A stretch of 64,000 nt of DNA from a virus. Its lineage: Duplodnaviria > Caudoviricetes. A program made the translations under genes and the position numbers. The stretch covers positions 29,135 to 93,134 of IMG/VR virus record IMGVR_UViG_3300037067_021941; one strand, given 5' to 3'. This document shows positions 3,681-57,244 of this stretch, one piece after another. Positions within the stretch are counted from its first letter, which is position 1; each line of letters begins with the position of its first letter. The notes beneath the pieces were generated by a model. It was not told the origin of the DNA. It saw nothing but the letters and a program-made list of their open reading frames with translations, and did not search any database.

Positions 3681-5318
3681 TTATTCTGCTTCTGATTGCA
3701 GCTTTTGCCAATCTTTTTTAGTCCAAAGAGGTTCTATAACAGTCCCCCTCTGTAAAACAAAACTATTACGATCTTTATCGTAATCAACTCTTAATCTAAC
3801 ACCCTTGTCGGCCACTAATAATCTCTTATTCTGATTTCTAATGTCTTGCTCCCACATTAACACCAAACAGGTCTTACGCCCGTCAGATATTATCATTCGA
3901 AGCATTGCAGAACCTCTTTTAGTCCTACCTTCTACTACGCTTACTATTACTCCCTCTAAACAATCATTAACCTTAGACTTTTCAACGGTGTGATCGCCAG
4001 TGATACGATATAAATCGATAGGAGAATGCCAATGATAACCTAAAAATTGTTTTTCAAATCTAAGAACCTGATCGAATGAATAATCTTCTGAGTATAAAGA
4101 TGCAATATCTGTATGCGTAGCTTTAATGATTGGTCTATAATTCAGTATCTTCGCAGGTATTACTTTTCTCTTCGGATATGTCTGTTTGAATACCGCGATC
4201 TGACGCTCCCTTTCTGCTGCAATTGTTTCTTCTGTCCAATTAGCTTTTGCCATAAGACAACGCATATGATAATTCTTCAATATCTTAATTGGGTAGCTGA
4301 AACTCTTTAATTTCGACTTCTTGTTAAGCTGTTGTTTTTTTGATTCTGCTATCTCTGCCTTAGCTTGTTCATCGACGTCTTTAAATTCAAAATCTTCGAC
4401 AGTACCAGAGCCATGCTCATGGAGGTACCACATCCATGTAGCTCTTTTGTTTGGGTGTAACTTAGAAAACGCACCCAATTTTATTAGTCGCTCAAAAAGA
4501 ATCTTACTCTTGCCTTTTTTCTCAATAAAATCGTCAATATCTGTATAAATATTATTACCGACTTTATCAACAAATGCTATCGCCGCCTTATCACCAATTT
4601 TCTTTAGACTTGTTAAACCAAGTGCTATATGTTTATTTGATACGTTGAGACCAGAGTGTGCAGTTGGATGCAATGTAAGCTTTGCTATGTCAATTTCACC
4701 AAATTTGACGTCTTCACCACGTGCGGCAGACATATATCGTTCAAGAGCCTGTTGGTCACATGTCCCCATTACGCTCGCCCACCATTCTTCGGCGAAATGT
4801 GCTTTAAGCCAAAGACAACGATATGCCCATAAGCAATAGCAGATAGCATGACTTAAATTAAAAGCGTATCGACCGAATGTCTCCATCTTATCCCAATATT
4901 CACGTGCTTTCGACTCGCCAATCTTCTTACTTGCACCAGTCAGCCAATGTTCTCTAACTGGCTTTAATTTCTCTTTCCATTTCTTTGCAACTGCTTTTCT
5001 TGCATCTTGCGATTCTGGACCAGTAAACCCCGCAATGCATTGCCATATGGATGTAAGTTGCTCTTGAAACACAATTACACCGCTTGTTATGCTTAAGATT
5101 TTGACAATATCTGGGTGTTCACCTTGTGCCCATCTATTGCTGGTGTCATCGCGATTTTTGACATAATCTGGGATAGAATTGTGAACCAAAACACTATTGG
5201 CAAAGAAATTACCCTCATTCTGCCAACATTGCTCAAAGTTGCCAATATCATAAACATCTTCTTCGTCGCACTCTTCGATGCTTATGATTTCAGCTAATTC
5301 TAAACCATCTGTGCCCAT
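3681..5318 (-). CDS. dnaE: DnaE fragment 4: split-intein C-half (IntC-2) fused to the C-terminal fingers/HhH/OB region
   Basis: N-terminus ...VYDI...NFFANSVLVHN|S is an intein F/G block. It is followed by GVIVFQEQ, GRYAFNLSHAICY, GLTSLKKIG and an OB-fold-like end typical of Pol III alpha. Confidence 0.92.
   Translation of the reverse strand: MGTDGLELAEIISIEECDEEDVYDIGNFEQCWQNEGNFFANSVLVHNSIPDYVKNRDDTSNRWAQGEHPDIVKILSITSGVIVFQEQLTSIWQCIAGFTGPESQDARKAVAKKWKEKLKPVREHWLTGASKKIGESKAREYWDKMETFGRYAFNLSHAICYCLWAYRCLWLKAHFAEEWWASVMGTCDQQALERYMSAARGEDVKFGEIDIAKLTLHPTAHSGLNVSNKHIALGLTSLKKIGDKAAIAFVDKVGNNIYTDIDDFIEKKGKSKILFERLIKLGAFSKLHPNKRATWMWYLHEHGSGTVEDFEFKDVDEQAKAEIAESKKQQLNKKSKLKSFSYPIKILKNYHMRCLMAKANWTEETIAAERERQIAVFKQTYPKRKVIPAKILNYRPIIKATHTDIASLYSEDYSFDQVLRFEKQFLGYHWHSPIDLYRITGDHTVEKSKVNDCLEGVIVSVVEGRTKRGSAMLRMIISDGRKTCLVLMWEQDIRNQNKRLLVADKGVRLRVDYDKDRNSFVLQRGTVIEPLWTKKDWQKLQSEAE
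5178..5318 (-). other. Split intein C-terminal half IntC-2
   Basis: 47 aa ending VHN (5178-5186), followed by Ser+1 (5175-5177). Strongly acidic. Confidence 0.9.
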
Positions 5319-6457
5319 AGTCCACCAATGAAATTATTAGAACTTTCAACTATATTAACAAGCCGCTGGTCGTTGATGCTTTTATTACAATACAGCTCTT
5401 TTTCCGTGATTAGCTTGTATGATGAATTATGGCAAGCGGCATACTCAACACCAGCCTTAATTTTCGCAATTTCTCGTTTTTCGTCATATATCTGCGGATT
5501 GCTGGCCTTAATTTCGACCATCCTACACCCATCAATAAGGAAATCGCAAAAATACCGATGACCTTGCCATGGTATTATAGGACGATTTCTTAATAATGAA
5601 ATTGGCTTAAATCGCTCACACCAAACAATAAAATCAAGTTCATATGAAGAATCGTACGGATAACATTGGCCAAAATATTCACTGAAATATTTATGTTTAA
5701 TAGTGAAGTTCGGATGATTCTCTAGCCAACGCCTCCAGCACTCTTTGGAACAGAATTTACGAGACCATTTACTGCAAACAGATAAAAATGGTGCTCCACA
5801 TGACTTGCATTTAGTTTGCTGAACACGCGCAGCCAATGCTGGATCAATTACGTAATTCGGATGAACAAGACGTTTGCGATAAGAAAGCCAACATGATGAT
5901 GAACAAAAAATTAAACCAGATGCATATCTACGACTAGCGGTTTGAATAAATTGTTCGCCGCATTCTCCACAACATACCAATTCAGGATCTTTAGCGAATG
6001 GATATGTGTGTTGAAACCATTGAATGTCGAGAGAATGTTGTTGTCTAATTTCGTTTTGTTTGGCGTTACCGGCAGCAACGAACACCGCTAACATATTACG
6101 TCGATCTTCTACTGAAGCCGATTTAACCTTTTTAACCCAGGATTGACGAGCGTCCGATAGTTGTTTGCAGTCAGCCTTGAATCGTCCCGCAGACCACATT
6201 GATTTATTTTGGTCAGCACGACGTATACGTTCAAAAGTAGTATTCATCCTCTCGCGCGTTTTGTCTGCATAAGACCGTATCGACTCATTAGTCTGTTCAG
6301 TCAATCCTTTATTCCATGGTGGAGGAGTTGCAATATTCAACTGAAATTCACGTGCTATACGATAAATATATGCAACATGAACACACAGTTTTTGGCTTAT
6401 ACTCTTCGCGTATTCACCGTTATTGACCAGCCGGATTATTTCCTGTTTTTTCGACAT
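5300..6457 (-). mobile_element. Free-standing putative homing endonuclease (Zn-finger repeats + TnsA-like PD-(D/E)XK nuclease) between the intein halves
   Basis: CxxC/FCSxxC repeats and C-terminal YDSSYELDF...YFCDFLID...VEIK. Overlaps both flanking dnaE fragments. Likely start MSKKQ at 6457. Confidence 0.75.
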
Positions 6458-6725
6458 ACAATTTATCTTTGATTGACAATTGCCCGACTGGTTTAATGCC
6501 GAAATCACCAAACATCCAATGGTTGGCGGAAGCTTTAATCGTCGCACCATTACTTAAACGAATACGATATACTTTTTTGCGTCCTGTCTTGAAAACCCTA
6601 TAATTGTCAGTGAGATCCGAATTACCTTTCGAATTAACATATTTTATCTTGTGTACATTATGATCTACCTGATCAATCCTAATGTTGCCTATATTAGTGC
6701 TAACTAATGTATCGGCAGCTAAACA
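6420..6725 (-). other. Split intein N-terminal half IntN-2
   Basis: Cys1 at 6723-6725 after HPGPMQ. About 100 aa with Hint motifs (KKVYRIRLSNGATIKASANH), then a stop. Confidence 0.9.
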
Positions 6726-8030
6726 CTGCATCGGACCAGGATGCCCCATAGCATTAAAAATCAATAAGTCTCGAAAGCTATGCACGCCAGCGGATAATGT
6801 TCGTTTAGCAAGCTCAGTATCAAATTGGAAAATACTGTCAGTCTGTGAATCGTTAGCTAATTTTAAAGCCGCTGGGTCTTCTAGTGGTATTGTCTTCTTC
6901 TCACCATTCTCCCAATAATATCCAGCAACGTTATTAATCTGATCAGAATCGTCCCATCCTTGCAGTTGGTCACCAAATGATATGCCATGATTCTCCCTGA
7001 TCATCTCACACGCTGTCTTTATATATGATAGGTTCTTCAACCCAAGTATATCCCATTTGACATAGCCAAATTTCGATAATTGTGTATTGCGGCCCTCCGT
7101 CCATATGCTTACCCATTGATCGGTCTTTTTGTCATATTGCATCGGTACATTACCGAATAAATCCCGATCCGCAATAATAAGACCACCAGCATGTTTTCCT
7201 GCGTGCTTAATGCGACCAACTAGACGTATCGCAGTATCGATTACCTGCTGATGTGCCTCCTTATTCTCTGCTACAAATTGCCCAATCTCCGGATGGTCTC
7301 TCATTATCATAGCGATAGTTGGTGTGTCAGTATCACCGCTATGACATTGTGGACATTCTAGACCTTTGTGTTTGAAACCACATTCTTTGTCGACACCATC
7401 CTCTTTTACACGACCTTTACAAGCACCATATCCACCTTCGCGCATTTCATTAACTTCATCTGGCAAGATTTTTGTTAATTCAATCGCTCTATTTTTAGTG
7501 CCTTGATCTCGATCTATCTTTTCAAGCCCAAGTCCAGAATAGGCATCTGCGATAGCTTGCTTTAAAAGATAAGCCTGCCAAGTACCAACACTTGCCACAT
7601 TACGTTTCCCATATCGCTTAGCGACATAATCTTTAATCTGGTTCCTAGCTTCTGGTAAACAATCAATGTCTATATCTGGTTTATCGTCGTCTTGACGAAT
7701 ATCAGATGGTAGTTTACCAGTCTTTTTTAAGACAGCTTGAACATCGTCATACCTCGCACTAAGCATCAATGGACCATTTCTATGTGCGATTGGATCGATA
7801 TTTGCATCACCAGTGAAACGATTAAGTAGCCATGGTAGTAGAAGTTGATTTGGATTTTTATCAAACTCTTTACCAGATTCTATCAGATCTTCCCAATACC
7901 TTTGGGCTCCTTGCATGCGAATCTGATCTAATTCAAAATCTAGTCGCTTGGTATAAATCTCTGGTAAGCTCAATCGCTGTATCTTTTTATGGGCGATTTG
8001 TGCAATTTTCTCAAATTCAAATTTACCCAT
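6420..8030 (-). CDS. dnaE: DnaE fragment 3: catalytic palm/thumb fused to split-intein N-half (IntN-2)
   Basis: PDIDID, GKHAGGLII, KWDILGLKNL, IFQFD and HPGPMQ, then intein block A CLAADTLV and block B ASANH. Confidence 0.92.
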   Translation of the reverse strand: MGKFEFEKIAQIAHKKIQRLSLPEIYTKRLDFELDQIRMQGAQRYWEDLIESGKEFDKNPNQLLLPWLLNRFTGDANIDPIAHRNGPLMLSARYDDVQAVLKKTGKLPSDIRQDDDKPDIDIDCLPEARNQIKDYVAKRYGKRNVASVGTWQAYLLKQAIADAYSGLGLEKIDRDQGTKNRAIELTKILPDEVNEMREGGYGACKGRVKEDGVDKECGFKHKGLECPQCHSGDTDTPTIAMIMRDHPEIGQFVAENKEAHQQVIDTAIRLVGRIKHAGKHAGGLIIADRDLFGNVPMQYDKKTDQWVSIWTEGRNTQLSKFGYVKWDILGLKNLSYIKTACEMIRENHGISFGDQLQGWDDSDQINNVAGYYWENGEKKTIPLEDPAALKLANDSQTDSIFQFDTELAKRTLSAGVHSFRDLLIFNAMGHPGPMQCLAADTLVSTNIGNIRIDQVDHNVHKIKYVNSKGNSDLTDNYRVFKTGRKKVYRIRLSNGATIKASANHWMFGDFGIKPVGQLSIKDKLYVEKTGNNPAGQ

Positions 8031-8510: not shown

Positions 8511-8965
8511 TGTTCTCCTCTAAGTTTTTTACCGTCAGCATCAGTGAGTTGTGGATATTCAGCGCCAGTAATCTCTTTGAGTTGAGCAATCGCCATGCCA
8601 AGTACATTAAAAAATACAGTGCAACGCTCAGATGTGTTTATTGATTCAGTAACCTTCATACAATCAATAATGCTTTTCATACTAGCGTTGGCCTTAATGC
8701 GAAGTTCAATTGCATTGTATGTATTTGTTAACTCTTTCAGTCTATCTAATATTCCTAGTATCGCAGCTTCAAGAGAAATAGCAGCAAGCGTATAGAGCGT
8801 TTTAGCTTGATCGGTATCACCAGGCGGAAGACATCCAATGAATTCAATCAATCTCATATTCATCTGCCCTAACAACGGGCATGGTTCGCCCACTAAGAGT
8901 AAATAATCGCTCATAGCGGCATGTAACGATTTTAATGACGATTGAAAAATATCTTTAGCCATCAA
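8507..8965 (-). CDS. Hypothetical helical protein inside the dnaE locus
   Basis: 152-aa ORF overlapping both neighbours (translational coupling). Confidence 0.65.
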   Translation of the reverse strand: MMAKDIFQSSLKSLHAAMSDYLLLVGEPCPLLGQMNMRLIEFIGCLPPGDTDQAKTLYTLAAISLEAAILGILDRLKELTNTYNAIELRIKANASMKSIIDCMKVTESINTSERCTVFFNVLGMAIAQLKEITGAEYPQLTDADGKKLRGEQ

Positions 8966-9272
8966 TTTTAGTCCTTAAAAGATAACCACCACGCGAACTA
9001 GCTAAGAAACGATCAAAACTCAACTTCCATTTAAGACTATTGATATTATGAATGCCAAGCAAATAACACACAAGTGAGCCAGCAGCCGAATTGGAGCTGA
9101 AAACGCCATTTAACCTGTAAGTGTTGGTATTACTTACTTGCAAATCAAACACCTTACCTGTGTAATGACGCCTCGATATGCTTTTTATTTTTAGCCTCTC
9201 TACGGAACCTGCTGATACCAATGCTTGCAATTCGCTGATGTTTCGGATCTGTGAAGGCAATAATTGTTGCAT
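8955..9272 (-). CDS. dnaE: DnaE fragment 2: split-intein C-half (IntC-1) + 44-aa extein SAAGSLVCYLLGI...FDRFL
   Basis: YTGKVFDLQV...YRLNGVFSSN|SAAGSLVCYLLGI. ATG at 9272 with GGAGAG upstream. Asn at 9090-9092, Ser+1 at 9087-9089. Confidence 0.9.
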   Translation of the reverse strand: MQQLLPSQIRNISELQALVSAGSVERLKIKSISRRHYTGKVFDLQVSNTNTYRLNGVFSSNSAAGSLVCYLLGIHNINSLKWKLSFDRFLASSRGGYLLRTKIDG

Positions 9273-10215
9273 TGTTAATCTCTCCGATTTGTTTCCACAT
9301 ATGTCCACCGCCCAACCTACGTAGAATACATTCAGTTAGTAGTCTTTCAGTGTCGTATAGTATATACGAGTCTGCAATGCCTGTTTCAGCGATATAACTA
9401 TTTGCCGCTGTTTGTTTTTCAGCAACATTACTCTTATAGAAACCTTTCACTTCGATTATCGTCCGCTCACCATTTCTATCAACTACGAAGAAGTCTGGAT
9501 GATAGAAATGATTACCATATGCAATTGCAAAATTACACCTTCTAATTTTGCTATATTTATTTCTTACACCCCATAGAAATATCAGTTCGTATGCACTATC
9601 AAACCTTATCTTATGCCCGTTAATCAGAACCGTACCTTCGACAGATCGACTTCTTCTACGGTGTTTATTAGCATATTCCGGATCGATCTGCATTGTTTTA
9701 TTATGCAGATCGAACGCTCTCAAGCACTGTATTCTATAATCTTTATTCTGCCATAGTAATCTACTATTATTTCTATTTAATTCTAATTTCGCAGGCTCAT
9801 TTTGTATCAAATTATCGAGACATTTTAAACAGATATTGTCATATTGGTAATGCTTTCTATCTGCGAGTTTAGACCATCGTATGCGGTACTCACAACCACA
9901 TTCATGACATTCAAATCTAACTAATATCTTTGAAGATACTCCCATCAGATATTTTATTGCTATTTTGTAGTCTATACAACCACTGAATATCTGATAATGA
10001 AATTCTTCCGGAACAGCCTTAAACACAGCGCTAGATTTTGCTAATTTAAGTAAACATTTTCGGCATATATGCTCGTTTTTATATGTCTCTCTATATCTTA
10101 AATTATGGGTTGTCGTTGCACAATTCACACCACATTTTTCACAATTATAAGTAATCCTGACATATTTCATGGGTACGGGTGGCTTGTTGGTCCTGTAAGC
10201 TACCAATGATTTCAT
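9154..10215 (-). mobile_element. Free-standing putative homing endonuclease (Zn ribbons + TnsA-like PD-(D/E)XK nuclease) between the intein halves
   Basis: CxxC pairs and FDSAYELIF...YHPDFFV...IIEVKG. Overlaps the IntN-1 end and the IntC-1 start. Start is uncertain (10215 or 10170). Confidence 0.75.
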
Positions 10216-10474
10216 CTGTATCTTTGATTTCAGATGCCGGCAAAAGCATAACCAAGCCACCCCTGATAACATATAATTTATGATCGGCAGTGATTGTTAT
10301 CATACAACCATCTAATTCAAAGACAAACAACTCCTCTGAAACATCATAAATAAATTTATTCTCAACGGTTTGTTCATTTCCAAAGCCATCTTGTATCTTG
10401 TCTCCTATCTGGATATCTTCAATTTTCTTTTGTTGGTAATGATTGATATTTATTAGCGAGTCTGGAATAGTGCA
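10145..10474 (-). other. Split intein N-terminal half IntN-1
   Basis: Block A CTIPDSLI, KKIEDIQIGD, block B ITADHKLYV, ASEIKDTDEI. Acidic. Confidence 0.9.
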
Positions 10475-11743
10475 GCCGCGAGGCCCAAATATCCAGCCTT
10501 GTCGTTTACCCCATTGTATCCAGTCTCTAGTTATCAAGAAATAACTAGAAAAGCCCTTATCAATAAATCGGTTTAACTCTATCTCTGCTTGTTCTGCGTA
10601 CGTGACATCACGCCCATCACATGACCATTTTGTTGTATCTTTGTCCCAGCCACGTAAATGAAGCTGTTCATTGACTATAGCACGCAACACATCATTGGCA
10701 TTTGTTCCAGGTTCTATAACCGACCAATTTGGAATTTTGGGTGACGTATCTGGCATAAGTTTATCACATCGTTCTGCAATTAACAGCGTATTATCGCACA
10801 TTTCTTCAAATTTGACGTCGTCTATTCCGTTAGAATAATCACCATTCTTGAATGTCGTCCAAAGCTCTGCTCGCGATTTGAAAAACTGCTCATCGCCCTG
10901 TGATGCGAACATTTTAGTATCATGAATATTGGTTTTCTGATCGACCGCCATCATGATCTTCTGCAGATATGCGTCTTCACGTGTCAGATAATGAGCGTCA
11001 TTTGTAAGCACTAATCTAACACCATACTTATCAGCAAGTTCAATAAGTTGGTGAAAAACAGCGACGTCATGTAACTCAGCGATGCACGGCATCTGCACTT
11101 CGATAAAGAAATCTTCACCAAACACTCCCTTGAATTCTTTTAAATATTCAATTGCCGTCTTGTCGGCTCTACTACGCGGATATTTCTTTCCATCTTTAAT
11201 ATTATTTTCAATGTCTAGCCGCAGTTCATATGATAACGGACCATTAACACACCCAGATAAAACAATTAATCCTTCTTTGAGTTCGCATAATCTTTCAAAC
11301 CAAATACGAGGTTTGCCAATATATGAGTGTTCCCAAGCCAACGTTGTTAATTTAATCAGGTTAGAAACACCGGTAGAGTTCTTTGCTAAAACGGTTAAGT
11401 GCCGATTACGCATAATACGCTGTTTAAGACTATCAGGTAATAAATCACGTTTTTTTCCTGATTCTTCAATTTTCTTACGCAAAGTCTCATAGGCATTGAA
11501 ATATATCTCAGAACCACTTATATACTTCAAACCTCGTTTCTTGAAAGCAAAATGCATATCTGGAAAAGATGCCATGTGGCCATGCTCTGTAGCGGCCATG
11601 GCTGGAAAGCCAAGCTTCGCACAGGCGTCTGCATATTGTTCTGCTGATGGTACTCCGTCTAAAGAGCTGAATAAAGAATGCACATGTAAATGCGCAAATT
11701 CTTTGGGACCATTATACTGAGATGGTTCAATTTCTTCCAACAT
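10145..11743 (-). CDS. dnaE: DnaE fragment 1: PHP domain + start of palm fused to split-intein N-half (IntN-1)
   Basis: HLHVHS..SLDG, TEHG, HLTVLAKN, NDAHY, GFSSYFL and GPRG, then CTIPDSLI...ITADH. Cys1 at 10472-10474. Confidence 0.93.
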   Translation of the reverse strand: MLEEIEPSQYNGPKEFAHLHVHSLFSSLDGVPSAEQYADACAKLGFPAMAATEHGHMASFPDMHFAFKKRGLKYISGSEIYFNAYETLRKKIEESGKKRDLLPDSLKQRIMRNRHLTVLAKNSTGVSNLIKLTTLAWEHSYIGKPRIWFERLCELKEGLIVLSGCVNGPLSYELRLDIENNIKDGKKYPRSRADKTAIEYLKEFKGVFGEDFFIEVQMPCIAELHDVAVFHQLIELADKYGVRLVLTNDAHYLTREDAYLQKIMMAVDQKTNIHDTKMFASQGDEQFFKSRAELWTTFKNGDYSNGIDDVKFEEMCDNTLLIAERCDKLMPDTSPKIPNWSVIEPGTNANDVLRAIVNEQLHLRGWDKDTTKWSCDGRDVTYAEQAEIELNRFIDKGFSSYFLITRDWIQWGKRQGWIFGPRGCTIPDSLININHYQQKKIEDIQIGDKIQDGFGNEQTVENKFIYDVSEELFVFELDGCMITITADHKLYVIRGGLVMLLPASEIKDTDEIIGSLQDQQATRTHEICQDYL

Positions 11744-13390: not shown

Positions 13391-14896
13391 TTACTCTGAC
13401 AGCTCGGTATTCTTTATGCCGCCCATGTACTCATACCGCAACAAAGAAATATTCCATTTCTTTAACGACTCCAATAACATATCATATCCCCTGTTAATGC
13501 GATTGATGTAATTTTCAGTATCTTTGTTGTCAGGCCAATATTTTCCCTTATTATATTGTGGAACTAATGTGGTGTGGCTACGACCATCTGGAGAAAGCTT
13601 CGCATCACAACCAAATAAAGAGATTGATTTTGCACCGAGAAATGCAGCTATGTGTATGGCCGTGTGGACTGTCGAAGCATGATGAAAGAATGGCTGATCT
13701 TTATTATTGAGACAAGAATTGCTATCTTGCGGCCCTAAATCAAAAGTTATACAATCAGAAAATTTTGCTGATGGTTCTATAGACGTTTTACCAGCACCAA
13801 TTTTCAGTTTCTTTGGTATAAGTAGTTGACTCGAAAGATAACGCTTAGCATCGATTACAGCTTCTGCCGGTTTTAAATCATGGAACACAACATAATCACA
13901 ATTGAATATCAAGGAGTTGTAATTCACACCAATCACAATATCGAAATCATCTAATATACCGTTCGTAACATGATCTAACGATGGACCAGCACCTAATATA
14001 GCAATGCGTGCGTTTGCGTGCTTATTTTTCAATAATTCTATTCCATGTAAATCTGGTAAGAAATTATCTAAAAACCATTGAAAAGGTCTTTTTTGAATTC
14101 GATCACGTATAGCGATTCGTTCTGAAATATCCCCAAATTTAATATCTCCCGGCTTCTTCCTGATAGATTGATAAAATAACTTTTTATAATCATCAAACCA
14201 AACTTCCGCTATTCTTGCTTTATTTGCTTCTAGCGTGGTCGTATCGAATTCATAATTAAACTTGTTTTTGAACCAGTGTGCAACCACAGAATCACGAACT
14301 ATCTCAACAGTTCCACCAGCTAACCATGTCCGAAGTGAAAATTCGATATTTTCACATCCCCATTTATACATCCCAGTATCAAAACCGCCAATCTCGTTCC
14401 ACCATTGTTTGGTAAATGCAAAACAATGACCGGCTAAAGCTGGTGTCATATCAGATCCATCATCTGATATCCAATTAAAATCAAGATTCCAGCGCCAACC
14501 AGTTTTGGCATAAGCCGATGTTGTTTCCATCCAAGTAGGTGCATCAAGCCCTCTTGTAAGCGGTACAGCGACACAGTTATATCGCTCTCCTAAGCGTTTA
14601 ACAATAGGTAATAGCCAATCAGATGCCACTTTAATGTGTGGGTCCATTGATACTATCACAGGAGATTTCACAGCTTCGGCAGCAATATTCCGTGATCTAA
14701 TTAGTCCTTCTCGCATATTATTTCGAATAATTCTAACTTTAGGTCTATCTATCACAATAGGAATTTTACTACAATCGTCAACTATGATAAATTCATCAAT
14801 GAGGCCCGGCATCGTTTTTTCTATGATTGTATCTATTGTTTTCTCGATATATTCCTCGTTTAGTGCAGACATAATAATTGTCGCTGTCAGCATCAA
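13391..14896 (-). CDS. Polypeptide GalNAc-transferase-like (GT27/GT-A) domain fused to a Maf/DUF115-like domain
   Basis: REGLIRSR, DPH (DxH), TPALAG, GFDTGMYKWGCENIEFSLRTWLAGG, VAHWFK, NKARIAEVWFDDYK, GDISER, FQWFLDN. C-terminal ILGAGPSL...STVHTAIHIAAFLGAKSISLFGCD. Confidence 0.85.
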   Translation of the reverse strand: MMLTATIIMSALNEEYIEKTIDTIIEKTMPGLIDEFIIVDDCSKIPIVIDRPKVRIIRNNMREGLIRSRNIAAEAVKSPVIVSMDPHIKVASDWLLPIVKRLGERYNCVAVPLTRGLDAPTWMETTSAYAKTGWRWNLDFNWISDDGSDMTPALAGHCFAFTKQWWNEIGGFDTGMYKWGCENIEFSLRTWLAGGTVEIVRDSVVAHWFKNKFNYEFDTTTLEANKARIAEVWFDDYKKLFYQSIRKKPGDIKFGDISERIAIRDRIQKRPFQWFLDNFLPDLHGIELLKNKHANARIAILGAGPSLDHVTNGILDDFDIVIGVNYNSLIFNCDYVVFHDLKPAEAVIDAKRYLSSQLLIPKKLKIGAGKTSIEPSAKFSDCITFDLGPQDSNSCLNNKDQPFFHHASTVHTAIHIAAFLGAKSISLFGCDAKLSPDGRSHTTLVPQYNKGKYWPDNKDTENYINRINRGYDMLLESLKKWNISLLRYEYMGGIKNTELSE

Positions 14897-28649: not shown

Positions 28650-30251
28650 TCAGTATTGTTTTAGTGTATTCAAGAAATTCTTAACATCGCCACTAGGCAT
28701 CTCTATTCTTGTAAACGATTCTGGATATAAAACGCTAAGTATGGTATAAAACGCTTCTTCTGTGCCCATATATTTATTTTGAATGGCCCATTCTATTTCA
28801 GAATAAAATAATGGTGTCACATGTTGGATTTGCTGTTTCGTTCCACCAAATAGTGTGGCTCGACAGACGTAATTTGGATTCCTGGTGCATCGCTCAATCA
28901 TCCCATTAATATTATAGCCGTGTATCTCAGCATTCGTATAGTATGGATATGATGTAATGAAAAATTTGTCTTTTGGTATTCTCGTAAAATAGAACTGATT
29001 AAGATCATCAGATATGTGAAAACTATTACATATACCAGAGTCGATCCAATAAAAATAACTACTATTATTAGTTCTGGTGGCGGCATCTAACATACGCTGT
29101 TTCATCAACGTCATAGCAACATAGTGCCGCGAGCTTATAACACTGTCCTTCATCCATGCGGATTGGGTATCCCAACCGAAACTAGAAACAACATCAAGCA
29201 CACCTTGAAAATAATCACATGCTTCGATATCGGTAGTATTGAACTTAACAAGAGTTAAATCGTGATTACCTCGTAACTTTTTCATTAATTCGAAATGTTT
29301 TTCATCACAGTGTAGAATTAAACGATGCCTAGTATTTAGTATCTTCTTGACACCCTCTAAGTAATGAGTCTCAAAATCTCTGTCGTTTCTACCAAGATCA
29401 ACTAACATAGAAACAAGAGTGATGTCATGCGGATGACGGTAGCCTTTATCAAGAAAACGATAATTGAACTGTGGATAAATCCTGTCGTGTTTCAGTTCAT
29501 TCGGAATATAATCCTCTGGTGTTTTGGTATCATCCGGCCTTCTACCAGCAATCGCACTGCAATCGTCCCCAAGATGTCTTACATATTCCTGGCCGCCTAA
29601 GAATACTGCTTTATATCCTAACGCTAAAAATTTCCTATCAATATTCCATTCGTTATGCCATTTCTCAACACGACCAAGCCATATCAGATCATCACGTCGT
29701 TTGAGATTAGGACTGCCAACCCACCCATACCAAGCCAGATGATAATCTGTTATTGTCCAGGGTTTCTTGTTATAGTAAGAGACCTTTGTGCCGTCATTAG
29801 CCGTGAATGTAATTAAATTCTTATCGTAAGCTTTGATCCCTTGCCATTCGAATGTTCGCCAAGAAATATCGACAGTGCCGATATTTCTATACTTTTGCAG
29901 TATACGCTTAGAATCAATTAGATAACCGGGTTTTAGAAATTCCCAATCGTCTTCTAAATAGAAAATGTATTCGGAATCGCAATATGATACCATGAAATCC
30001 ATAGCCCACCACTGGCTACGATTTCTAGGGAAGCAAATAACATCACAATAAGTGCCATATTCTTCTACAAGCTTTTCAAAAACGCCCTCAACTGCACTAT
30101 CGTCGACTATCACCATCTTGGTTGCGTAGTCTCTTGTGGCTATAAATGATGCCAATGTTTTTCTTAGAACGTCTAGCCTATTACAACTCAAAACGAATGT
30201 TGTAGTATCTGAATCTGGTTGTTCTACTGTATGAAACTTAGCTTTGTTCAT
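28650..30251 (-). CDS. GT2-like domain fused to an HtrL/YibB-like domain
   Basis: IVDDS, YLEDDW; then [12 protein letters not shown]...YFYWIDSG...LFGG...GTEE. Confidence 0.7.
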
Positions 30252-34780: not shown

Positions 34781-35239
34781 TTAAATATCGGTGACTCGTT
34801 GATATTGTGGTTCTACCGGATTATCAGTAGAACCGAATCCCTTACTACCACGCTCGGTCTCATCGAGGGTGTTTACTTCAACGATTGACACTTCTGGAAC
34901 TGGTAACACTAGCCCCTGGATTATCTTGTCGCTCGGTTGTATAAACTGAGTATCATCACTCAGGTTGACAAGACAAACCAATATTTCTCCACGGTACGTA
35001 CAATCTATCACACCGGCAAGCCGGTGAATATTTCTCTTTGCACCCATTCCAGATCTATCAAATAAAACAACACAATACCCCTCATCAATCGCTGCTGCCA
35101 ATCCGGTGTGAAAAACATAACTTTCGCCTGGTGCAAGTTGAGCATAATCAACTGTTGTTATATCAATACCAGCCTCTAATGCCCCAGCCTTCACAGGAAT
35201 CTTGGCGTCTGGTCGCAGCTTTTGGAATTTAATTTGCAT
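34781..35239 (-). CDS. dut: Trimeric dUTPase
   Basis: AGID, DRSG, GVIDCTYRGEI, IIQG, RGSKGFGST. Confidence 0.95.
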   Translation of the reverse strand: MQIKFQKLRPDAKIPVKAGALEAGIDITTVDYAQLAPGESYVFHTGLAAAIDEGYCVVLFDRSGMGAKRNIHRLAGVIDCTYRGEILVCLVNLSDDTQFIQPSDKIIQGLVLPVPEVSIVEVNTLDETERGSKGFGSTDNPVEPQYQRVTDI

Positions 35240-38462: not shown

Positions 38463-40094
38463 ATGGATATATCGAATTTAGTGACAGCATTCGTTATAAG
38501 TTCTGGTTCAAACCCAAATTATAAATCGTGTTTAGAAGCTCTAAATAATCAAACGGCCAAAGTCACTATCGATATAATTAAAGACTATAGCCCAATGTCG
38601 GTAGCTTTTCAACAAATGCTCGTCAGATGTAAAACACCATATTATATTGAAGTCGATGAAGATATGGTGTTAAATCCTGATGCAATAGAGATAATGTATA
38701 ATACAATTATTGAAACAGATGCAAAGTGTTCAATGGTCGCATTTCAGTTACTTGATGTCCATATCGATTTTATAATCTATGGAATCAAGATATACAAATA
38801 TGATATTTTCAAAAACTACCCATATAATCTCGAAAACATGTCGTGTGAAGTAGAACAGCTCGAAAGAATGAAAGCTGATGGCTATACCTATAAACTGGCG
38901 CTTCAAGTCGTCGGTAAACACTCGCCGTTATGGAATAAAGAACTTATTTTTGAAAGATACTTGAACTTGATGGAGAAGTTCAAGGAGTTTGGATATGTTT
39001 GGTTAGAAGATCTTCCGAGAAAATTATTTACAATTTTCAAGAAAGATCCATCCGAATTAAACTTATTTGCTCTCCTTGGTGCATACACAAGTGTTGCAAG
39101 TACAGAAAAACTACAATTGGGCGAAAAGAATTTCACAAAGAAGCGACAGCAATTTCACGCAATGCAAAGTTTTATAGAACAACCAACATCTGCTACACTA
39201 TATATTACTAACAAATGTAATCTCAAATGTGATTTCTGTTGGAGACAACATAAGGACTTAGAAGACTTTCCGGATATGACTACTGGTGTTGTGGACGATT
39301 TATTATTTAGATTCCCATCTATCCAATCATTGTGTGTCTGCGGTTTTGGAGAACCTTTTCTATGTGAAAACTTAACAGCGATAATGCAATATATTAAGAA
39401 GCCAGTATCACAATGGCACTCTTATAATAAGAATCTTTACGCTGGCCTTATTACAAACGGAACATTAGTAACTGAAAAATTACCACAATTGCGTGATAAA
39501 GGCTGTTTACCTGATTATTTATCAGTCAGCTTAAACGCATCGAATGCAACAGAATTCAAACAAATAACTGGTCATGATTTATTCGCACAGGTGCTGTCTG
39601 GTGTGAAAACAAGCGTCGATACAGGAATACCAACATATTTATCTCGCGTCTGCGATAAACAGAATCTAAATGGTGTTCGAGAGTTTTTGCGATTAGCTAA
39701 ATCTCTTGGCGTTAAGGGTGTTCATCTCCATAATTTATTACCACATTTTGATGATGACAAAAATACGAAATTCTGGGATATGGTTCTTACTAAAGATGAT
39801 CATTTTCTTATAGAAGAAATTGCAAACCTGCCAGAAGCAGACATCATAGAAACATACCCCGTCTTAATCGCCAAAGACGAAGTCATGAAAAAATGTCAAT
39901 TCCCATGGAAGACTATTGGTATAAATGGGAATAGATCAATAACGATTTGCAACAGTGTCGCACCACCACGGAAAGAAAATGGATTGATTACAGATAGTAT
40001 AGTATGGCATAATGCATACTGCAATCAATTCAGAGAAGTAAAAATTAACGAACAATGTGAAGCCTGCAAGAAATGCTTCCGGAACTGGCAATGA
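38463..40094 (+). CDS. GT-A-like domain fused to a radical SAM/SPASM domain
   Basis: YYIEVDEDM; CNLKCDFC, GFGEPF, ITNG; C-terminal CQFPW...CN...CEACKKC. Confidence 0.8.
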   Translation: MDISNLVTAFVISSGSNPNYKSCLEALNNQTAKVTIDIIKDYSPMSVAFQQMLVRCKTPYYIEVDEDMVLNPDAIEIMYNTIIETDAKCSMVAFQLLDVHIDFIIYGIKIYKYDIFKNYPYNLENMSCEVEQLERMKADGYTYKLALQVVGKHSPLWNKELIFERYLNLMEKFKEFGYVWLEDLPRKLFTIFKKDPSELNLFALLGAYTSVASTEKLQLGEKNFTKKRQQFHAMQSFIEQPTSATLYITNKCNLKCDFCWRQHKDLEDFPDMTTGVVDDLLFRFPSIQSLCVCGFGEPFLCENLTAIMQYIKKPVSQWHSYNKNLYAGLITNGTLVTEKLPQLRDKGCLPDYLSVSLNASNATEFKQITGHDLFAQVLSGVKTSVDTGIPTYLSRVCDKQNLNGVREFLRLAKSLGVKGVHLHNLLPHFDDDKNTKFWDMVLTKDDHFLIEEIANLPEADIIETYPVLIAKDEVMKKCQFPWKTIGINGNRSITICNSVAPPRKENGLITDSIVWHNAYCNQFREVKINEQCEACKKCFRNWQ

Positions 40095-47939: not shown

Positions 47940-49103
47940 ATGGATAGCTCAGAGGGCCAATCGGCGTTGGTCGCCGAGCCACCTAGTTCTAAAACGCAAT
48001 CTTTTCGCGAACGATATTTTCCAAACACGACCAATGAAGAATGGAATGATTGGCGTTGGCAGTTAAGCAATAAATATACGACGAAAGAGCAGATCGAGAC
48101 TATAATTGATCTGAGCAGTAAAGAAAGTTCAGCTATGGTAAAACTCCATAGCTATGGTAGACTAGCGATTAATATTACACCATATTATCTCAGTCTAATA
48201 TCACCGAACGAGCCAAATCAACCGCTTCGACGAACAATTGTACCAACCTTCGATGAATTTTACACATCGCCCGGTGAAACAGAAGATCCATTATCGGAAG
48301 ACAGAGACACCCCAGTTCCGAAGCTTGTGCACCGATATGGTGATAGAGCTTTGCTTTTAGTAGCTGGCCAATGTGCTAGTTATTGTCGATATTGCACACG
48401 ATCAAGATTGATTTGTGTACAAAATGCAAAACCAGCTACGCAATCGCAACTAAACGCAGCGATAGCTTACATCAGACAAAATACAAATATCAGGGATGTC
48501 ATCGTATCTGGTGGCGATCCACTATTATTTAGAGACGGCAAGCTTGATTCAATTCTGTATGAACTGCGGCACATTCAGCACGTAGAAATTATCAGGATCG
48601 GTACAAAGGTACCCGTAGTACTGCCACAGCGAATTACACCAAAACTATGCAAAATGCTAAAGAAGTACCACCCACTTTTTATGAGTATCCATTTTACGCA
48701 TCCAGACGAATGCACCCAGGAATGCGCTAAAGCTTGCTCGATGCTGGTAGATGCTGGGATACCACTCGGTTCGCAAACAGTACTACTGTCGGGCATCAAC
48801 GACAGCGTCGAGACTATGAAGTTATTGATGCATCGACTACTGATGATGCGGGTAAGACCATATTACTTATATCAATGCGATCTAGTTACTGGCACAGCAC
48901 ACTTTAGGACTCCAATTTCGAAAGGCGTAGAAATTATTGAGGGGCTTCGTGGGCATACCTCAGGTTATGCCATTCCTACATTCGTGGTAGATGGCCCCGG
49001 TGGTGTCGGAAAAATACCAATACAACCAAATTATGTAATCAAACAAGATGAGACAGGATCTGTACTTCGAAATTTCTGTGGGCAGACTTGCCACTATCCC
49101 TGA
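47940..49103 (+). CDS. kamA: Lysine 2,3-aminomutase (KamA-family radical SAM)
   Basis: LVHRYGDR, CASYCRYCTR, SGGDPL, QTVLL, PYYLYQCD, GHTSGYAIP, PGGVGKIP. Confidence 0.88.
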   Translation: MDSSEGQSALVAEPPSSKTQSFRERYFPNTTNEEWNDWRWQLSNKYTTKEQIETIIDLSSKESSAMVKLHSYGRLAINITPYYLSLISPNEPNQPLRRTIVPTFDEFYTSPGETEDPLSEDRDTPVPKLVHRYGDRALLLVAGQCASYCRYCTRSRLICVQNAKPATQSQLNAAIAYIRQNTNIRDVIVSGGDPLLFRDGKLDSILYELRHIQHVEIIRIGTKVPVVLPQRITPKLCKMLKKYHPLFMSIHFTHPDECTQECAKACSMLVDAGIPLGSQTVLLSGINDSVETMKLLMHRLLMMRVRPYYLYQCDLVTGTAHFRTPISKGVEIIEGLRGHTSGYAIPTFVVDGPGGVGKIPIQPNYVIKQDETGSVLRNFCGQTCHYP

Positions 49104-52666: not shown

Positions 52667-53296
52667 ATGTTAACACAAGAAGTAATATGCCCATATTGTA
52701 GCTCAGAATTTTCTGCTGCTGTATGGGTCGATAGTAGATGTGAAAAGTGTGGTGGGAATTATTATTGGTCGATGGAATCTAACACTAGTCTTACTGATAG
52801 TTGGCATGTTATTTCGTGGGACAGAGATAAGTCTATTTATGTAGCGACAACGTTGGCCAACTGGGAACAAGCCAGAGCATTTATAAATTTCTTCAAAAGT
52901 CTACAAATCCCAATAGCTTTCGACTGGACAGTATGGGGTGAAGAAATTGCTAATAACAAAACATCGAGAGATATTAATCCAGACTCATTGCAACAAAAAG
53001 CGTTATGTGAGTATGAAGGTGTATCGACAGCATCATATGTCCTAATAATAGTTCCTACTGGACGTGGTACGAACTTTGAATATGGTGTTGCTTACCAGCG
53101 CCTGAACGATGTCAATCCGCCAATTATTACGATTTTAGATGAAACAGAACCAGTGGAACCTGTGAGTTTTCATTATTTGCCGGGCGTCAAGAGAGTGAAA
53201 TTTGTTAGTAATGCTATAGAAGATGTCTTAAAACACTTTGATATCGACATCAAAGATATAAATGTCGATTTAATTGCTTATGGCTTAGGGAGATAA
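52667..53296 (+). CDS. Zn ribbon + nucleoside 2-deoxyribosyltransferase / dNMP N-hydrolase-like domain
   Basis: CPYC..CEKC; SIYVAT...FDWT...GVSTASYVLIIVPTGRGTNFEYGVA. Confidence 0.65.
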   Translation: MLTQEVICPYCSSEFSAAVWVDSRCEKCGGNYYWSMESNTSLTDSWHVISWDRDKSIYVATTLANWEQARAFINFFKSLQIPIAFDWTVWGEEIANNKTSRDINPDSLQQKALCEYEGVSTASYVLIIVPTGRGTNFEYGVAYQRLNDVNPPIITILDETEPVEPVSFHYLPGVKRVKFVSNAIEDVLKHFDIDIKDINVDLIAYGLGR

Positions 53297-53926: not shown

Positions 53927-54616
53927 ATGCTATACTACATAAGCCAGAAGCTTGAATTAGACATAATGCAGGGGAGTGAATTAAACGAAGCTATGGAATT
54001 AGCTCACGTTTACAGAATGAATACGGTAATTGTTCATCCGGACTTGATTTTAGATGCCCAAGTACAACGTGTCAAAAGACAAGCAAAATACAAAATATTG
54101 ACAACTGTTGACTGGCCGAAGGGTGATAAATCTGGAATATCTAAATTTCGCAGCATGTCAATTCATTCTTTGTCATGTGATGGATTTGAGATTGCTTTGG
54201 GAATCAAATCACAAGGCGAGACCAAAGCAGAAACATTAGCAATCACTAATTTCATTCGTACACAGTTACCACAAGTTCAAGAAATCAGGTTCATTCTAGG
54301 TTGTTTGTCTAGAGAACAAGCCGATATCGATAATTTATGTTTAGCTATTAAGGAGATTCCTGCGCCGAATTTATTGCGGACCGACATTAATCTTCGTTGT
54401 GCGCAAGCAAAAGCTAACATATCTGCACATAGTGCTTCACTAGCTGCAATACAAGCCAATATTAACAGACCGATAAAGCTATGTGGCAATATAAATTCAG
54501 CTAAAGTTATAGCGTCGTGCAAAGCTAGTCGGTATGGCGTAAGTTTAAAGCAGGCGCAGACTATTATCAAAGAGCTAAAAGAAAATCCAGATAAAATCCA
54601 AAAGATATTCAAATGA
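53927..54616 (+). CDS. DeoC (deoxyribose-phosphate aldolase)-like TIM barrel, degenerate
   Basis: TTVDWPKG ~ TVIGFPLG; IRFIL ~ LKVII; LLRTD ~ FIKTS; IKLCGNI ~ VKASGGI; RYGVS ~ RIGTS. Confidence 0.6.
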   Translation: MLYYISQKLELDIMQGSELNEAMELAHVYRMNTVIVHPDLILDAQVQRVKRQAKYKILTTVDWPKGDKSGISKFRSMSIHSLSCDGFEIALGIKSQGETKAETLAITNFIRTQLPQVQEIRFILGCLSREQADIDNLCLAIKEIPAPNLLRTDINLRCAQAKANISAHSASLAAIQANINRPIKLCGNINSAKVIASCKASRYGVSLKQAQTIIKELKENPDKIQKIFK

Positions 54617-55141: not shown

Positions 55142-55184
55142 AATTAAATCACAGCAGTATTTGATAAAAGGGATTGAGGCAACA

Positions 55185-56432
55185 ATGTTCAACAATACCG
55201 ACACCAATTTCTGTTTTACACCGGGTAAATTGACAATCTTAATGGATGGAGGAGCAGGAAGTAGCGGTAAAGGCAAATTGGGAGCATTCGTTGCTGCCCA
55301 TGCAGATAACTGGCAATTTGCTTGCAATACATTCGCTCCACAAGCTGGCCATTGGGTTAAAAATGATGACGGAAAATCATATTTCTATCAGACATTCAAT
55401 AGTTGTGCTTGGATGTCTGACAAATATGAAAAGCTTTATATCGGCCCAGGATCAACTATCGAACTCGAAGCATTTTGGAGAGAAAAAGAACAAAATAATA
55501 TCCCAGGATGTAAAATTGGTATAAGTCCGGTAACATCAATTTTACAAACGATTGATGGCAAATTCGAACGCGGCCTAATCGATTTCGACGGTAACAACCG
55601 CGTTATTTCTGATCACTCACTAGCAAAGACGGGGACAACTGCACATGGTTGTGGAGCTAATCGTGCTAGACGAGTACTGCGCAGGCCAGAAGCAAGATAC
55701 GCCAGGGACATACCAGAACTTAGTGAATTCATTTGTGATGTACCTAATGAAATAATGGGGCGTCTAGAAGAAGGTCAAGCGGGTATGTTAGAATTGGCAC
55801 AAGGGTTCCAACTATCATACATGCTACCAGAGTTCTTCCCATTTACGACATCTAGAAATTGTACTGTTGCAGCCGGACTTGACGATATGATGCTGCCGCC
55901 GATTTATGCTGGCAATGTTATATTGAATTACAGAACATTTCCAATTCGTATCAGTAGCTTGAAGTATATTGGCGAAGGCGGGAAGCATCTGACATTCGAA
56001 GAAATCAAAAAATACGAGATTGAAGGCAAATCATACGAGATTTTCAAAGGTAATTCTGGTCCTGGTTACAATGACCAAGAAGAAACGACATGGGAAGAAA
56101 TCACAACCAATAGTGGCTCTCCCATCCCGATTATGGAGATGACAAGCGTAACCAAGCTGCCACGCAGAGTGTTCACATTTAGTCGCAAGAATGTCGAACA
56201 ATCAATTCTGCACAACCGCACTAACGGTAAAACATTCATTGCTGTCAATTTCGTCAATTATCTTGACCACAGTTTGACAGGTATGCGAGCATCATTCAGT
56301 CCAGTTGATTTTTGGTCTAGTGATATGATTACAAAGTGGTTGGATCAAAACCTTTCCAATTTAGATACCGAAGTCATATTGCTTGGAACAGGTGAAAAGA
56401 CGGACGATTACGTACTAATATCGACCACCTAA
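55185..56432 (+). CDS. purZ: PurZ-type adenylosuccinate-synthetase paralogue (N6-succinyl-2-amino-dAMP synthase)
   Basis: GSSGKGK (Ser where PurA has the catalytic Asp of GDEGKGK), QAGH, AQGFQL, FPFTTSR, RTFPIRI, GNSGP, TSVTKLPRRVFTFS, VNFVNY. Confidence 0.8.
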   Translation: MFNNTDTNFCFTPGKLTILMDGGAGSSGKGKLGAFVAAHADNWQFACNTFAPQAGHWVKNDDGKSYFYQTFNSCAWMSDKYEKLYIGPGSTIELEAFWREKEQNNIPGCKIGISPVTSILQTIDGKFERGLIDFDGNNRVISDHSLAKTGTTAHGCGANRARRVLRRPEARYARDIPELSEFICDVPNEIMGRLEEGQAGMLELAQGFQLSYMLPEFFPFTTSRNCTVAAGLDDMMLPPIYAGNVILNYRTFPIRISSLKYIGEGGKHLTFEEIKKYEIEGKSYEIFKGNSGPGYNDQEETTWEEITTNSGSPIPIMEMTSVTKLPRRVFTFSRKNVEQSILHNRTNGKTFIAVNFVNYLDHSLTGMRASFSPVDFWSSDMITKWLDQNLSNLDTEVILLGTGEKTDDYVLISTT

Positions 56433-56434
56433 AT

Positions 56435-57244
56435 ATGAACATTAAACTAGCCGCTTATATGGATGAGGTTTGCGATGATCCAGATAAGTCTGGCGAGCTA
56501 TTAACATCAAAAAACATAACCAATGTTTGTCTTCGTCGCGCTTGGTGCCGCGATATATCTAGTATGCCAGATAATGCAATTGGTATACTAGGCGGTATAC
56601 TAACTAAATATAAGCTATCACCAATATTATTACATACAGATATAGGATGCGTCGAGCCAGAAAAATTATCTTCTGAAGAGCCAAAACTCATCAGAGCTAT
56701 GCAGATATGTAAGTTTTTAAAATGTAAAACAATTTGTATAGGTTTTGGCGCTTCATCAGTAAAACCGTCTGGTGAGTATGTTCAACAATGGTTAGCAATC
56801 GCTTCAAGATTAAGTATCAACTACGACATGATACCATTGTTGGAGCCAAATACAAATTGTTATTACGATAAACCAGCATCACTTGCTATCGTTTTGAACA
56901 AATTTAAACGAGTAAGCCTATTATTTGACCCAGCATTATTTGTTATACGGTCGAAGACCAATCCATTCATCAAGTTTTGGTCGTTATTGAAATCAAGAGT
57001 TAGCTTCATTGACGTTCACGATTTTAAGAGCGGAGATTCTGCGAAGCCAGCTGGGTTTGGAGATGCTCAACTGGACATTTTGGTAGCGGACGCTATAGTT
57101 TCCAATTTTTCTGGATGGTTCTGTTTGGAGCCTGGCTTAGGCAGGCGATATGGAGAAGCGACAACAAAAGAAGAAACGTTTCTACGTGCTTTCGACGCTT
57201 GGGAAGCACTATTACAAAGAATACAATTACCAAAAATTTTGTAG
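56435..57244 (+). CDS. Sugar-phosphate isomerase/epimerase (AP endonuclease 2-like TIM barrel)
   Basis: LLEPN, LFDPA, DVHD, FCLEP metal-site pattern. Confidence 0.7.
   Translation: MNIKLAAYMDEVCDDPDKSGELLTSKNITNVCLRRAWCRDISSMPDNAIGILGGILTKYKLSPILLHTDIGCVEPEKLSSEEPKLIRAMQICKFLKCKTICIGFGASSVKPSGEYVQQWLAIASRLSINYDMIPLLEPNTNCYYDKPASLAIVLNKFKRVSLLFDPALFVIRSKTNPFIKFWSLLKSRVSFIDVHDFKSGDSAKPAGFGDAQLDILVADAIVSNFSGWFCLEPGLGRRYGEATTKEETFLRAFDAWEALLQRIQLPKIL

Follow-up and report, generated by a model that had tools for sequence, protein, structure and literature searches.

In small phages that encode PurZ, adenine is replaced in the DNA by 2-aminoadenine (Z). PurZ (DgsS, succino-amino-deoxyadenylate synthase; PDB 6FM1 and 7ODX) is known from phiVC8 (Vibrio), S-2L (a cyanophage), and SH-Ab 15497 (Acinetobacter), and PurZ0 (PDB 7VF6) from the Gordonia phages Archimedes and Ghobes as well as phage Wayne of Arthrobacter, in which its partners are DutZ and DmtZ. 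Characterised Z phages have genomes of ~40–66 kb and use DpoZ or a PrimPol together with DatZ and MazZ or DutZ and DmtZ. Seven such groups are counted in a 2026 survey of PurA homologues from viruses (PMC12884076), which among phage sequences describes PurZ and PurZ0 alone. Here, a 64,000-nucleotide stretch of caudoviricete phage DNA (the window; positions 29,135 to 93,134 of IMG/VR record IMGVR_UViG_3300037067_021941) was analysed, in which an intact open reading frame (ORF) at 55185..56432 (+ strand) encodes a PurZ-like synthetase (P0001) of 415 amino acids (aa), counted from its ATG. Unless indicated otherwise, coordinates refer to this window. An earlier note on this DNA had recognised a PurZ signature in the ORF and had suggested that the phage may carry a full or partial Z genome.

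The complete record is a linear fragment of 93,134 bp with a completeness of 26% according to CheckV, which corresponds to a jumbo phage with a genome of roughly 350 kb. No nucleotide-level relatives of the record were found in the phage collection. The PurZ-like protein has the fold of the PurZ proteins of phiVC8, S-2L, and SH-Ab 15497, but its identity to them is 24–27%, it is 50–70 aa longer, and its gene lies in a ~350-kb phage with a DnaE replicase instead of in a 40-kb siphovirus or podovirus, with no adjacent datZ-mazZ cluster, DpoZ, or PrimPol. The sequence GAGG is located 7 nucleotides 5' of the ATG, and a TTG at 55161 is the other possible start.

The ORF is not a chance reading frame, since more than 660 metagenomic homologues (E ≤ 1e-5; 55–82% identity), some of them on contigs of 250–370 kb, were found, and the motifs GSSGKG, TSVTKLPRR, and NF.NY.D were invariant across 31 aligned family members. 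A full scan with the PurZ-like protein yielded 1304 matches among 1.84 billion representatives, and every readable P-loop among the best 150 of these 1304 had Ser at the position of Asp13 of PurA. Inteins (Hint plus LAGLIDADG endonuclease) interrupted the homologues P0122, P0123, and P0124 (750–824 aa) at two or more different sites, near residues 140–150 and near the TSRNC motif (approximately residue 225); their presence at no fewer than two sites suggests that the gene is important. Sequence searches linked the protein to PHROG 1211 (‘2-aminooxy adenylosuccinate synthetase’; E 2e-30) and gave a weak Pfam match to PurA (E 6e-8), while in the PDB it was about equally close to Pyrococcus horikoshii PurA (E 6e-22), phiVC8 PurZ (1e-20), and S-2L PurZ (2e-15). 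In the literature, no account was found of this PurZ-like subfamily or of PurZ in jumbo phages with a DnaE replicase.

The substrate pocket was compared in a MAFFT L-INS-i alignment of E. coli PurA, two more PurA of the long type, four short PurA from archaea, three PurZ, two PurZ0, and relatives from the protein's own family, with PurA residues numbered as in the E. coli literature. All three motifs listed in the earlier note were present, and the residue equivalences that it had assigned to them were correct. The P-loop GSSGKG (residues 25–30; 55257..55274, + strand) has Ser26 at the Asp13 position, the loop TKLPRRVFTF (residues 323–332; 56151..56180, + strand) has Leu325 and Pro326 at the positions of Arg303 and Arg304, and NFVNY (residues 355–359; 56247..56261, + strand), which replaces the PurA motif TKLD, provides an ATP-type base pocket with Phe356 and Asn358. 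Thus, D13, R303, R304, K331, and D333 of PurA correspond to S26, L325, P326, F356, and N358, respectively, whereas the catalytic residues H41, Q224, R143, T129, and T239 were unchanged. The equivalent loop reads TKLPR in S-2L PurZ, as in the PurZ-like protein, and TKLTR in SH-Ab 15497 PurZ, so that Leu at the Arg303 position is common to all three; the Phe and Asn at the Lys331 and Asp333 positions occur likewise in phiVC8 PurZ. In addition, S14 and T262 of phiVC8 PurZ are kept as S26 and T320.

The catalytic Asp13 is 99% conserved in PurA (PMC12884076). Deoxy-specificity of PurZ has been ascribed to loss of the Arg303 contact combined with an insertion that pushes the equivalent of V273 toward C2', and its use of ATP to F306, N305, and Q308 (F295 and N297 in phiVC8) (PMC8342488, Czernecki et al.); F295 and N297 of phiVC8 and F306 and Q308 of S-2L bind the adenine (PMC8342488; bioRxiv 10.1101/2025.10.22.683976). 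The PurZ-like protein combines Ser in place of Asp13, loss of Arg303 with an insertion after the V273 equivalent (I256), and Phe and Asn in place of Lys331 and Asp333, all as in PurZ. The insertion is ~30–40 aa longer than in PurA and PurZ, ~30 aa longer than that of phiVC8 PurZ, and confined to the clade of this protein. PurZ0, which belongs to the same Ser13 clade, keeps Asp at D333 and thereby a GTP-type pocket, whereas the protein studied here has Asn358 and Phe356.

An AF2 model built with 31 homologues as input showed a complete fold, predicted with confidence (pLDDT 89.7). In a Foldseek search, phiVC8 PurZ (6FM1) ranked first (E 3.5e-23), followed by 5K7X, 7ODX, and the PurZ0 structure 7VF6. 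As modelled, the fold by itself does not discriminate between the PurA, PurZ, and PurZ0 matches. Short archaeal PurA, represented by P. horikoshii (5K7X), is as similar to the PurZ-like protein in sequence and fold (E 6e-22; TM score 0.88) and has the same compact architecture, but it retains Asp13, Arg303, and the guanine-specifying Asp333 (KLD reads M/C/N-L/V-D), and its place in the trees is outside the Ser13 clade.

The sequences used for phylogenetic trees included, from genome contigs, four short PurA of archaea with Asp13 and five of the long type, one of them archaeal and four bacterial. A first tree comprised 120 rows (LG+C20, SH-aLRT) and a second comprised 74 rows (LG+G4, UFBoot/SH-aLRT); the rows were drawn from the best matches to the PurZ-like protein, so that the sampling leans to its relatives, and the bootstrap of the 74-row tree was still short of full convergence (correlation 0.978). 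All Ser13 proteins were separated from the Asp13 PurA with a support of 100 (SH-aLRT) in the 120-row tree and 95/73 (UFBoot/SH-aLRT) in the 74-row tree. Within them, the wider clade of the PurZ-like protein, which includes a homologue from Flavobacterium phage MaF61, comprised 31 rows of the 120-row tree and was supported at 100/100 in the 74-row tree. A crown that united this clade with the PurZ references (phiVC8, S-2L, and SH-Ab) had a support of 99 in the 120-row tree; in the 74-row tree, the crown without PurZ0 was supported at 71/80. The PurZ0 references branched early, and the PurZ-like protein lay outside their clade; its stem branch was long (0.52) in the 120-row tree. The PurA/PurZ/PurZ0 phylogeny proposed in the earlier note as a check thus placed the protein inside the Ser13 PurZ/PurZ0 clade and did not cluster it with PurA. 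With moderate support, it lies closer than PurZ0 to the ATP-type PurZ references. These results indicated that the protein is, broadly defined, one of the PurZ group, in which it forms a deep subfamily of its own that is neither PurA nor PurZ0: it differs from PurA in S26, L325, and NFVN and in scores under the cut-offs of the PurA models TIGR00184 (45.8 versus 395 bits) and NF003295, and from PurZ0 in having N358 in place of an Asp333-type residue.

Homology, clade membership, retained catalytic residues, a PurZ-type pocket, and conservation throughout the family were all observed for an intact gene that lies in a replication module, and from these observations we infer the substrate, the presence of Z in the DNA, and the extent of substitution. 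The PurZ-like protein is moderately likely to be a synthase for dGMP, aspartate, and ATP that feeds dZTP to a DnaE replisome, with at least partial incorporation of Z. Complete substitution of adenine by Z is possible, but would be a less than even expectation. In the proposed sequence of reactions, the enzyme would convert dGMP, aspartate, and ATP or dATP to dSMP (N6-succino-2-amino-2'-deoxyadenylate), host PurB and kinases would convert dSMP to dZTP, and the phage DnaE replisome would place dZTP opposite T. Introduction of the S-2L Z-cluster into E. coli leads to Z in the chromosomal DNA, and E. coli Pol III can use dZTP in vivo (PMC8342488). Because of this observation, use of dZTP by a phage DnaE is plausible, and no special polymerase would be needed for Z.

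Identification of DnaE as the replicase on the record, as stated in the earlier note, was borne out by Pfam matches to four ORFs on the − strand between 3681 and 11743 (3681–5318, 6420–8030, 8955–9308, and 10145–11743), which together encode a family-C polymerase (DNA_pol3_alpha, finger, and HHH_6 matches, with four PF07733 pieces and a weak Intein_splicing match). Its description as ‘unusually rebuilt’ in relation to Z was not supported, as the DnaE pieces and the weak intein-splicing match make the gene look broken up by inteins, and no link to Z was visible. The PurZ-like gene lies within a replication and recombination module and adjoins DnaE in three related loci; Mre11-like and SbcC-like proteins are also encoded on the record. 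The statement that DatZ, MazZ, and DpoZ were not visible in the window could be extended, for DatZ and MazZ, to the whole 93-kb record, and is qualified for DpoZ by a divergent PolA-like gene just outside the window. This gene (contig positions 13545–14735, − strand) encodes a family-A-polymerase-like protein of 396 aa without an exonuclease domain and adjoins a DnaB-type helicase gene. The protein has motif A FDWRAADIRIAA, motif C THDS, and a degenerate motif B, and its kin of ~370–425 aa were found in six related DnaE-phage records.

Upstream of the synthetase gene, a conserved neighbour (53927..54616, + strand) encodes a protein of 229 aa for which no Pfam or PHROG match was found. Its AF2 model (pLDDT 89.5) had a deoxyribose-5-phosphate-aldolase (DERA/DeoC) fold: at least the top 40 Foldseek matches were all DERA (E 6e-10; TM score 0.74–0.77). 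A link to E. coli DeoC based on sequence alone was not significant, with an hhalign alignment that covered 36 columns only. In all eleven related loci of the DnaE lineage, a DERA-fold gene stands beside the PurZ-like gene, which follows a conserved module, and a gene for a protein of 190–220 aa from the nucleoside 2-deoxyribosyltransferase (NDT) superfamily adjoins the DERA-fold gene. In three larger records, the NDT-like and DERA-like genes were adjacent and single-copy; the pair was not found in MaF61 or in the PolA-type relative G007.

The NDT-like protein of these relatives exceeded the cut-offs of Pfam PF05014 or PF15891 in some members (PF05014, 35.5 versus 28.8), and its residues Y10, E16, D94, and E111 were conserved; together they supply the Tyr, acid, and nucleophile Glu of an NDT enzyme and the acidic residue at the position of D12 in the Ghobes protein. 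Its profile matched gp53 of the PurZ0 phage Archimedes, a protein of the DmtZ type, in hhalign with a probability of 87% (E 4e-6), with the Tyr, acidic, and Glu residues in register. The relatives thus resemble the PurZ0 phages in having an NDT-family gene, homologous to that for DmtZ-type gp53, beside the synthetase gene. DmtZ splits dAMP into adenine and deoxyribose-5-phosphate, and the sugar phosphate can be transferred to the Z base (PMC12884076); NDT domains have been independently associated with dZ contigs (bioRxiv 10.1101/2025.10.22.683976). A third candidate component, a member of the adenosine-deaminase family (PF00962; E ~1e-41 to 3e-44), was encoded in all three related records whose completeness exceeds 45%, although matches to PF00962 are very rare among phages (7 of 50,697 records). 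One operon of G007 (G007:C1:39730-42779, − strand) consists of a gene of the adenosine-deaminase family, an ORF of 282 aa, and the gene for adenylosuccinate lyase (PurB). About 9 kb away is a PurZ-like gene, flanked by genes for a PolA of 997 aa and for a dNMP kinase that resembles thymidylate kinase.

A tentative proposal, held with somewhat less than even confidence, is that this lineage of DnaE jumbo phages makes 2-aminoadenine DNA with its own PurZ subfamily and, having neither DatZ nor MazZ, excludes adenine through a new route of NDT, DERA, and deaminase proteins. The NDT-like protein would split dAMP into adenine and deoxyribose-5-phosphate, which the DERA-fold protein would consume; in addition or instead, the adenosine-deaminase-family enzyme would deaminate dA species, so that adenine could be kept out without DatZ.

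Several observations weigh against a PurZ function of the gene and against a Z genome. Helper genes were sought in the record itself and in 12 related IMG/VR records, one of which (G001) is 246 kb long and 91% complete. DatZ (PF12917), MazG, and DUF5664 were not found in these 13 records; nothing matched DUF550 above the cut-off, with a single weak match below threshold in G001. A search of the rest of the genome for datZ and mazZ, as suggested in the earlier note, ended without either gene on the 93-kb record (26% complete) or on the 12 related records. Local tblastn searches likewise gave no matches when the DatZ, MazZ, DUF550-region, and PrimPol proteins from phages S-2L, SH-Ab 15497, and phiVC8 were used as queries, and no guanylate kinase was found in the 13 records. 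Two candidates from G001 were rejected: an HD-domain match in a 190-aa protein, which by eye had an HD motif of the RelA/SpoT type instead of that of DatZ, and a MazG-like protein of 167 aa (DUF550, E 0.004), which was matched by nothing on the record studied here (G000) or in the other loci and was not accepted as a MazZ of the lineage. A Z genome is only inferred here, because no known dATP-removing helper was found on the record or on its 12 relatives.

Not all components of the proposed route were present on the record itself, either. The NDT type of the relatives was not found on the 93-kb record, and a PF00962 scan of this fragment gave no adenosine-deaminase gene. Moreover, adenosine deaminases can also deaminate diaminopurine nucleosides, which would run counter to Z. 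In the slot occupied by the NDT-like gene in the relatives, the window has an ORF for a 209-aa protein (52667..53296, + strand) that has a Zn ribbon and the motif GRGTNFEYG and whose language-model (Atlas) features matched NDT-clan clusters (0.88–0.76). It could not be accepted as an NDT enzyme, as it had no sequence match in Pfam or the PDB and its alignment to the NDT profile of the relatives was insignificant (hhalign E 0.024, probability 2%); feature matches, motif, and position in the module make an NDT fold a lead only. This ORF had 21 homologues, some on contigs of up to 364 kb. In the DERA-fold protein of the window, alignment by eye placed Arg151 at the position of the Schiff-base Lys and Lys184 at the equivalent of K201. 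Based on the secondary structure of the models, the strand-6 Schiff-base position was Arg in six of eight family members and Lys in the other two, and the K201-equivalent position, again by eye, was Lys in the six with Arg on strand 6 and Val in the remaining pair. Family members thus had a Lys on strand 6 or on strand 7, never on both, which hints that the catalytic lysine has migrated; aldolase chemistry of the modelled protein is uncertain.

Scores on curated family models were similarly unfavourable. On the NCBIfam model for PurZ (NF038379), the PurZ-like protein scored 136.2 bits against a cut-off of 300, close to the 127 bits of E. coli PurA, whereas reference PurZ and PurZ0 proteins scored 325–421 (350–421 for the three PurZ references). 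Its score on the archaeal PurA model NF003295 was nearly the same (129.5 bits against a cut-off of 368). Of its identification as PurZ in the earlier note, membership of the Ser13 clade and the substitutions in the substrate pocket therefore stand, while recognition by the curated PurZ model (136 versus 300 bits) does not. Finally, F12, N38, and T42 of phiVC8 PurZ are replaced by Ala24, Gln53, and Trp57, changes in the base pocket that are specific to the inner clade. Since these three residues are unlike those of every characterised PurZ, the base specificity of the enzyme could differ from that of PurZ.

The equal scores on the PurZ and archaeal PurA models, together with the failure to find canonical Z helper genes, would fit a role in purine salvage. 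In such a ‘purine nucleotide cycle’, a (deoxy)adenylosuccinate synthetase acting on IMP or dIMP would, with PurB of phage or host and an enzyme resembling adenosine or AMP deaminase, rebalance the pools of A and I/G to suit a jumbo genome rich in AT, and the DNA would contain no Z. The operon of G007, with its adenosine-deaminase-family gene, 282-aa ORF, and PurB gene in the vicinity of a PurZ-like gene, is consistent with this explanation, as is the presence of PurB in MaF61. It is nevertheless considered unlikely, since Asp13, 99% conserved in PurA (PMC12884076), has been replaced by Ser across the whole family, Leu stands in for Arg303, which contacts the 2'-OH and Asp, and the GTP motif has given way to an adenine-binding NF.N. 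In addition, the family nests in the Ser13 clade, whose characterised members (PurZ of phiVC8, S-2L, and SH-Ab; PurZ0 of Archimedes) all belong to Z pathways.

Alternatively, the PurZ relative may have been neofunctionalised to aminate another 6-oxopurine deoxynucleotide, such as dXMP or dGMP in a modified form. The outcome would be either a different non-canonical base or a nucleotide that does not enter the DNA. The clade-specific A24, Q53, and W57 that line the base pocket, the insert of 30–40 aa found in this clade only, the long stem branch (0.52), and the unusual partner genes would all agree with a changed specificity. As no enzyme for an alternative substrate was seen beside the gene, this explanation appears decidedly improbable. 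A decayed, non-catalytic PurA-like remnant without a role in nucleotide synthesis would account for scores below all curated family cut-offs, but is very hard to reconcile with catalytic residues that are invariant in more than 660 homologues, with a confident and complete fold, and with inteins at active-site motifs in relatives.

Should dZ indeed be made, Z-DNA would extend to jumbo phages of ~350 kb, which metagenomes contain in abundance, and a bacterial-type DnaE replisome would copy it naturally. With members of the lineage numbering in the hundreds in metagenomes, mostly of uncultured samples, Z genomes would be far commoner than thought, and the lineage would represent a third way of adenine exclusion as well as a source of new enzymes for Z-DNA in synthetic biology. 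If dZ is not made, the signature of Ser13, Leu303, and NF.N is insufficient for calling a Z genome, which would matter for pipelines in which such genes are already annotated as PurZ.

A ready experimental system for Z in the wider clade is offered by Flavobacterium phage MaF61 (PQ858689), a cultured myovirus of 168 kb for which no DNA chemistry has been reported (PMC13269007). Its ORF141, with GSSGKG and TKLPR motifs, was the sole match from a cultured phage with more than 30% identity (32%) to the PurZ-like protein. In addition (locus PQ858689: 69188–72132), MaF61 encodes a guanylate kinase (ORF95) and a PurB of its own (ORF149), and its ORF97, a 210-aa HD hydrolase, weakly resembles YfbR/DatZ.

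Directly downstream of the synthetase gene, 3 nucleotides after its stop codon, a 269-aa ORF (56435..57244, + strand) had a match below cut-off to PF01261 (xylose-isomerase-like TIM barrel; E 1e-3) and no counterpart in the related loci L004–L015. A trimeric dUTPase is encoded at 34781..35239 (− strand; PF00692, E 5e-20). It was considered as a dATPase of the DutZ type and rejected, as its best phage matches were ordinary dUTPases (40–43% identity) and its identity to gp55 of Archimedes was 27%; it is a generic enzyme, unlike the DutZ of PurZ0 phages. In the 91%-complete relative, the dUTPase domain carries a fused N-terminal extension of ~240 aa with Cys-rich and HNH-like motifs (G001:C1:4495-5652). 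Two radical-SAM proteins are encoded in the window at 38463–40094 and 47940–49103 (both + strand), amid glycosyltransferase and methyltransferase genes, and one of them has a lysine-2,3-aminomutase C-terminal domain.

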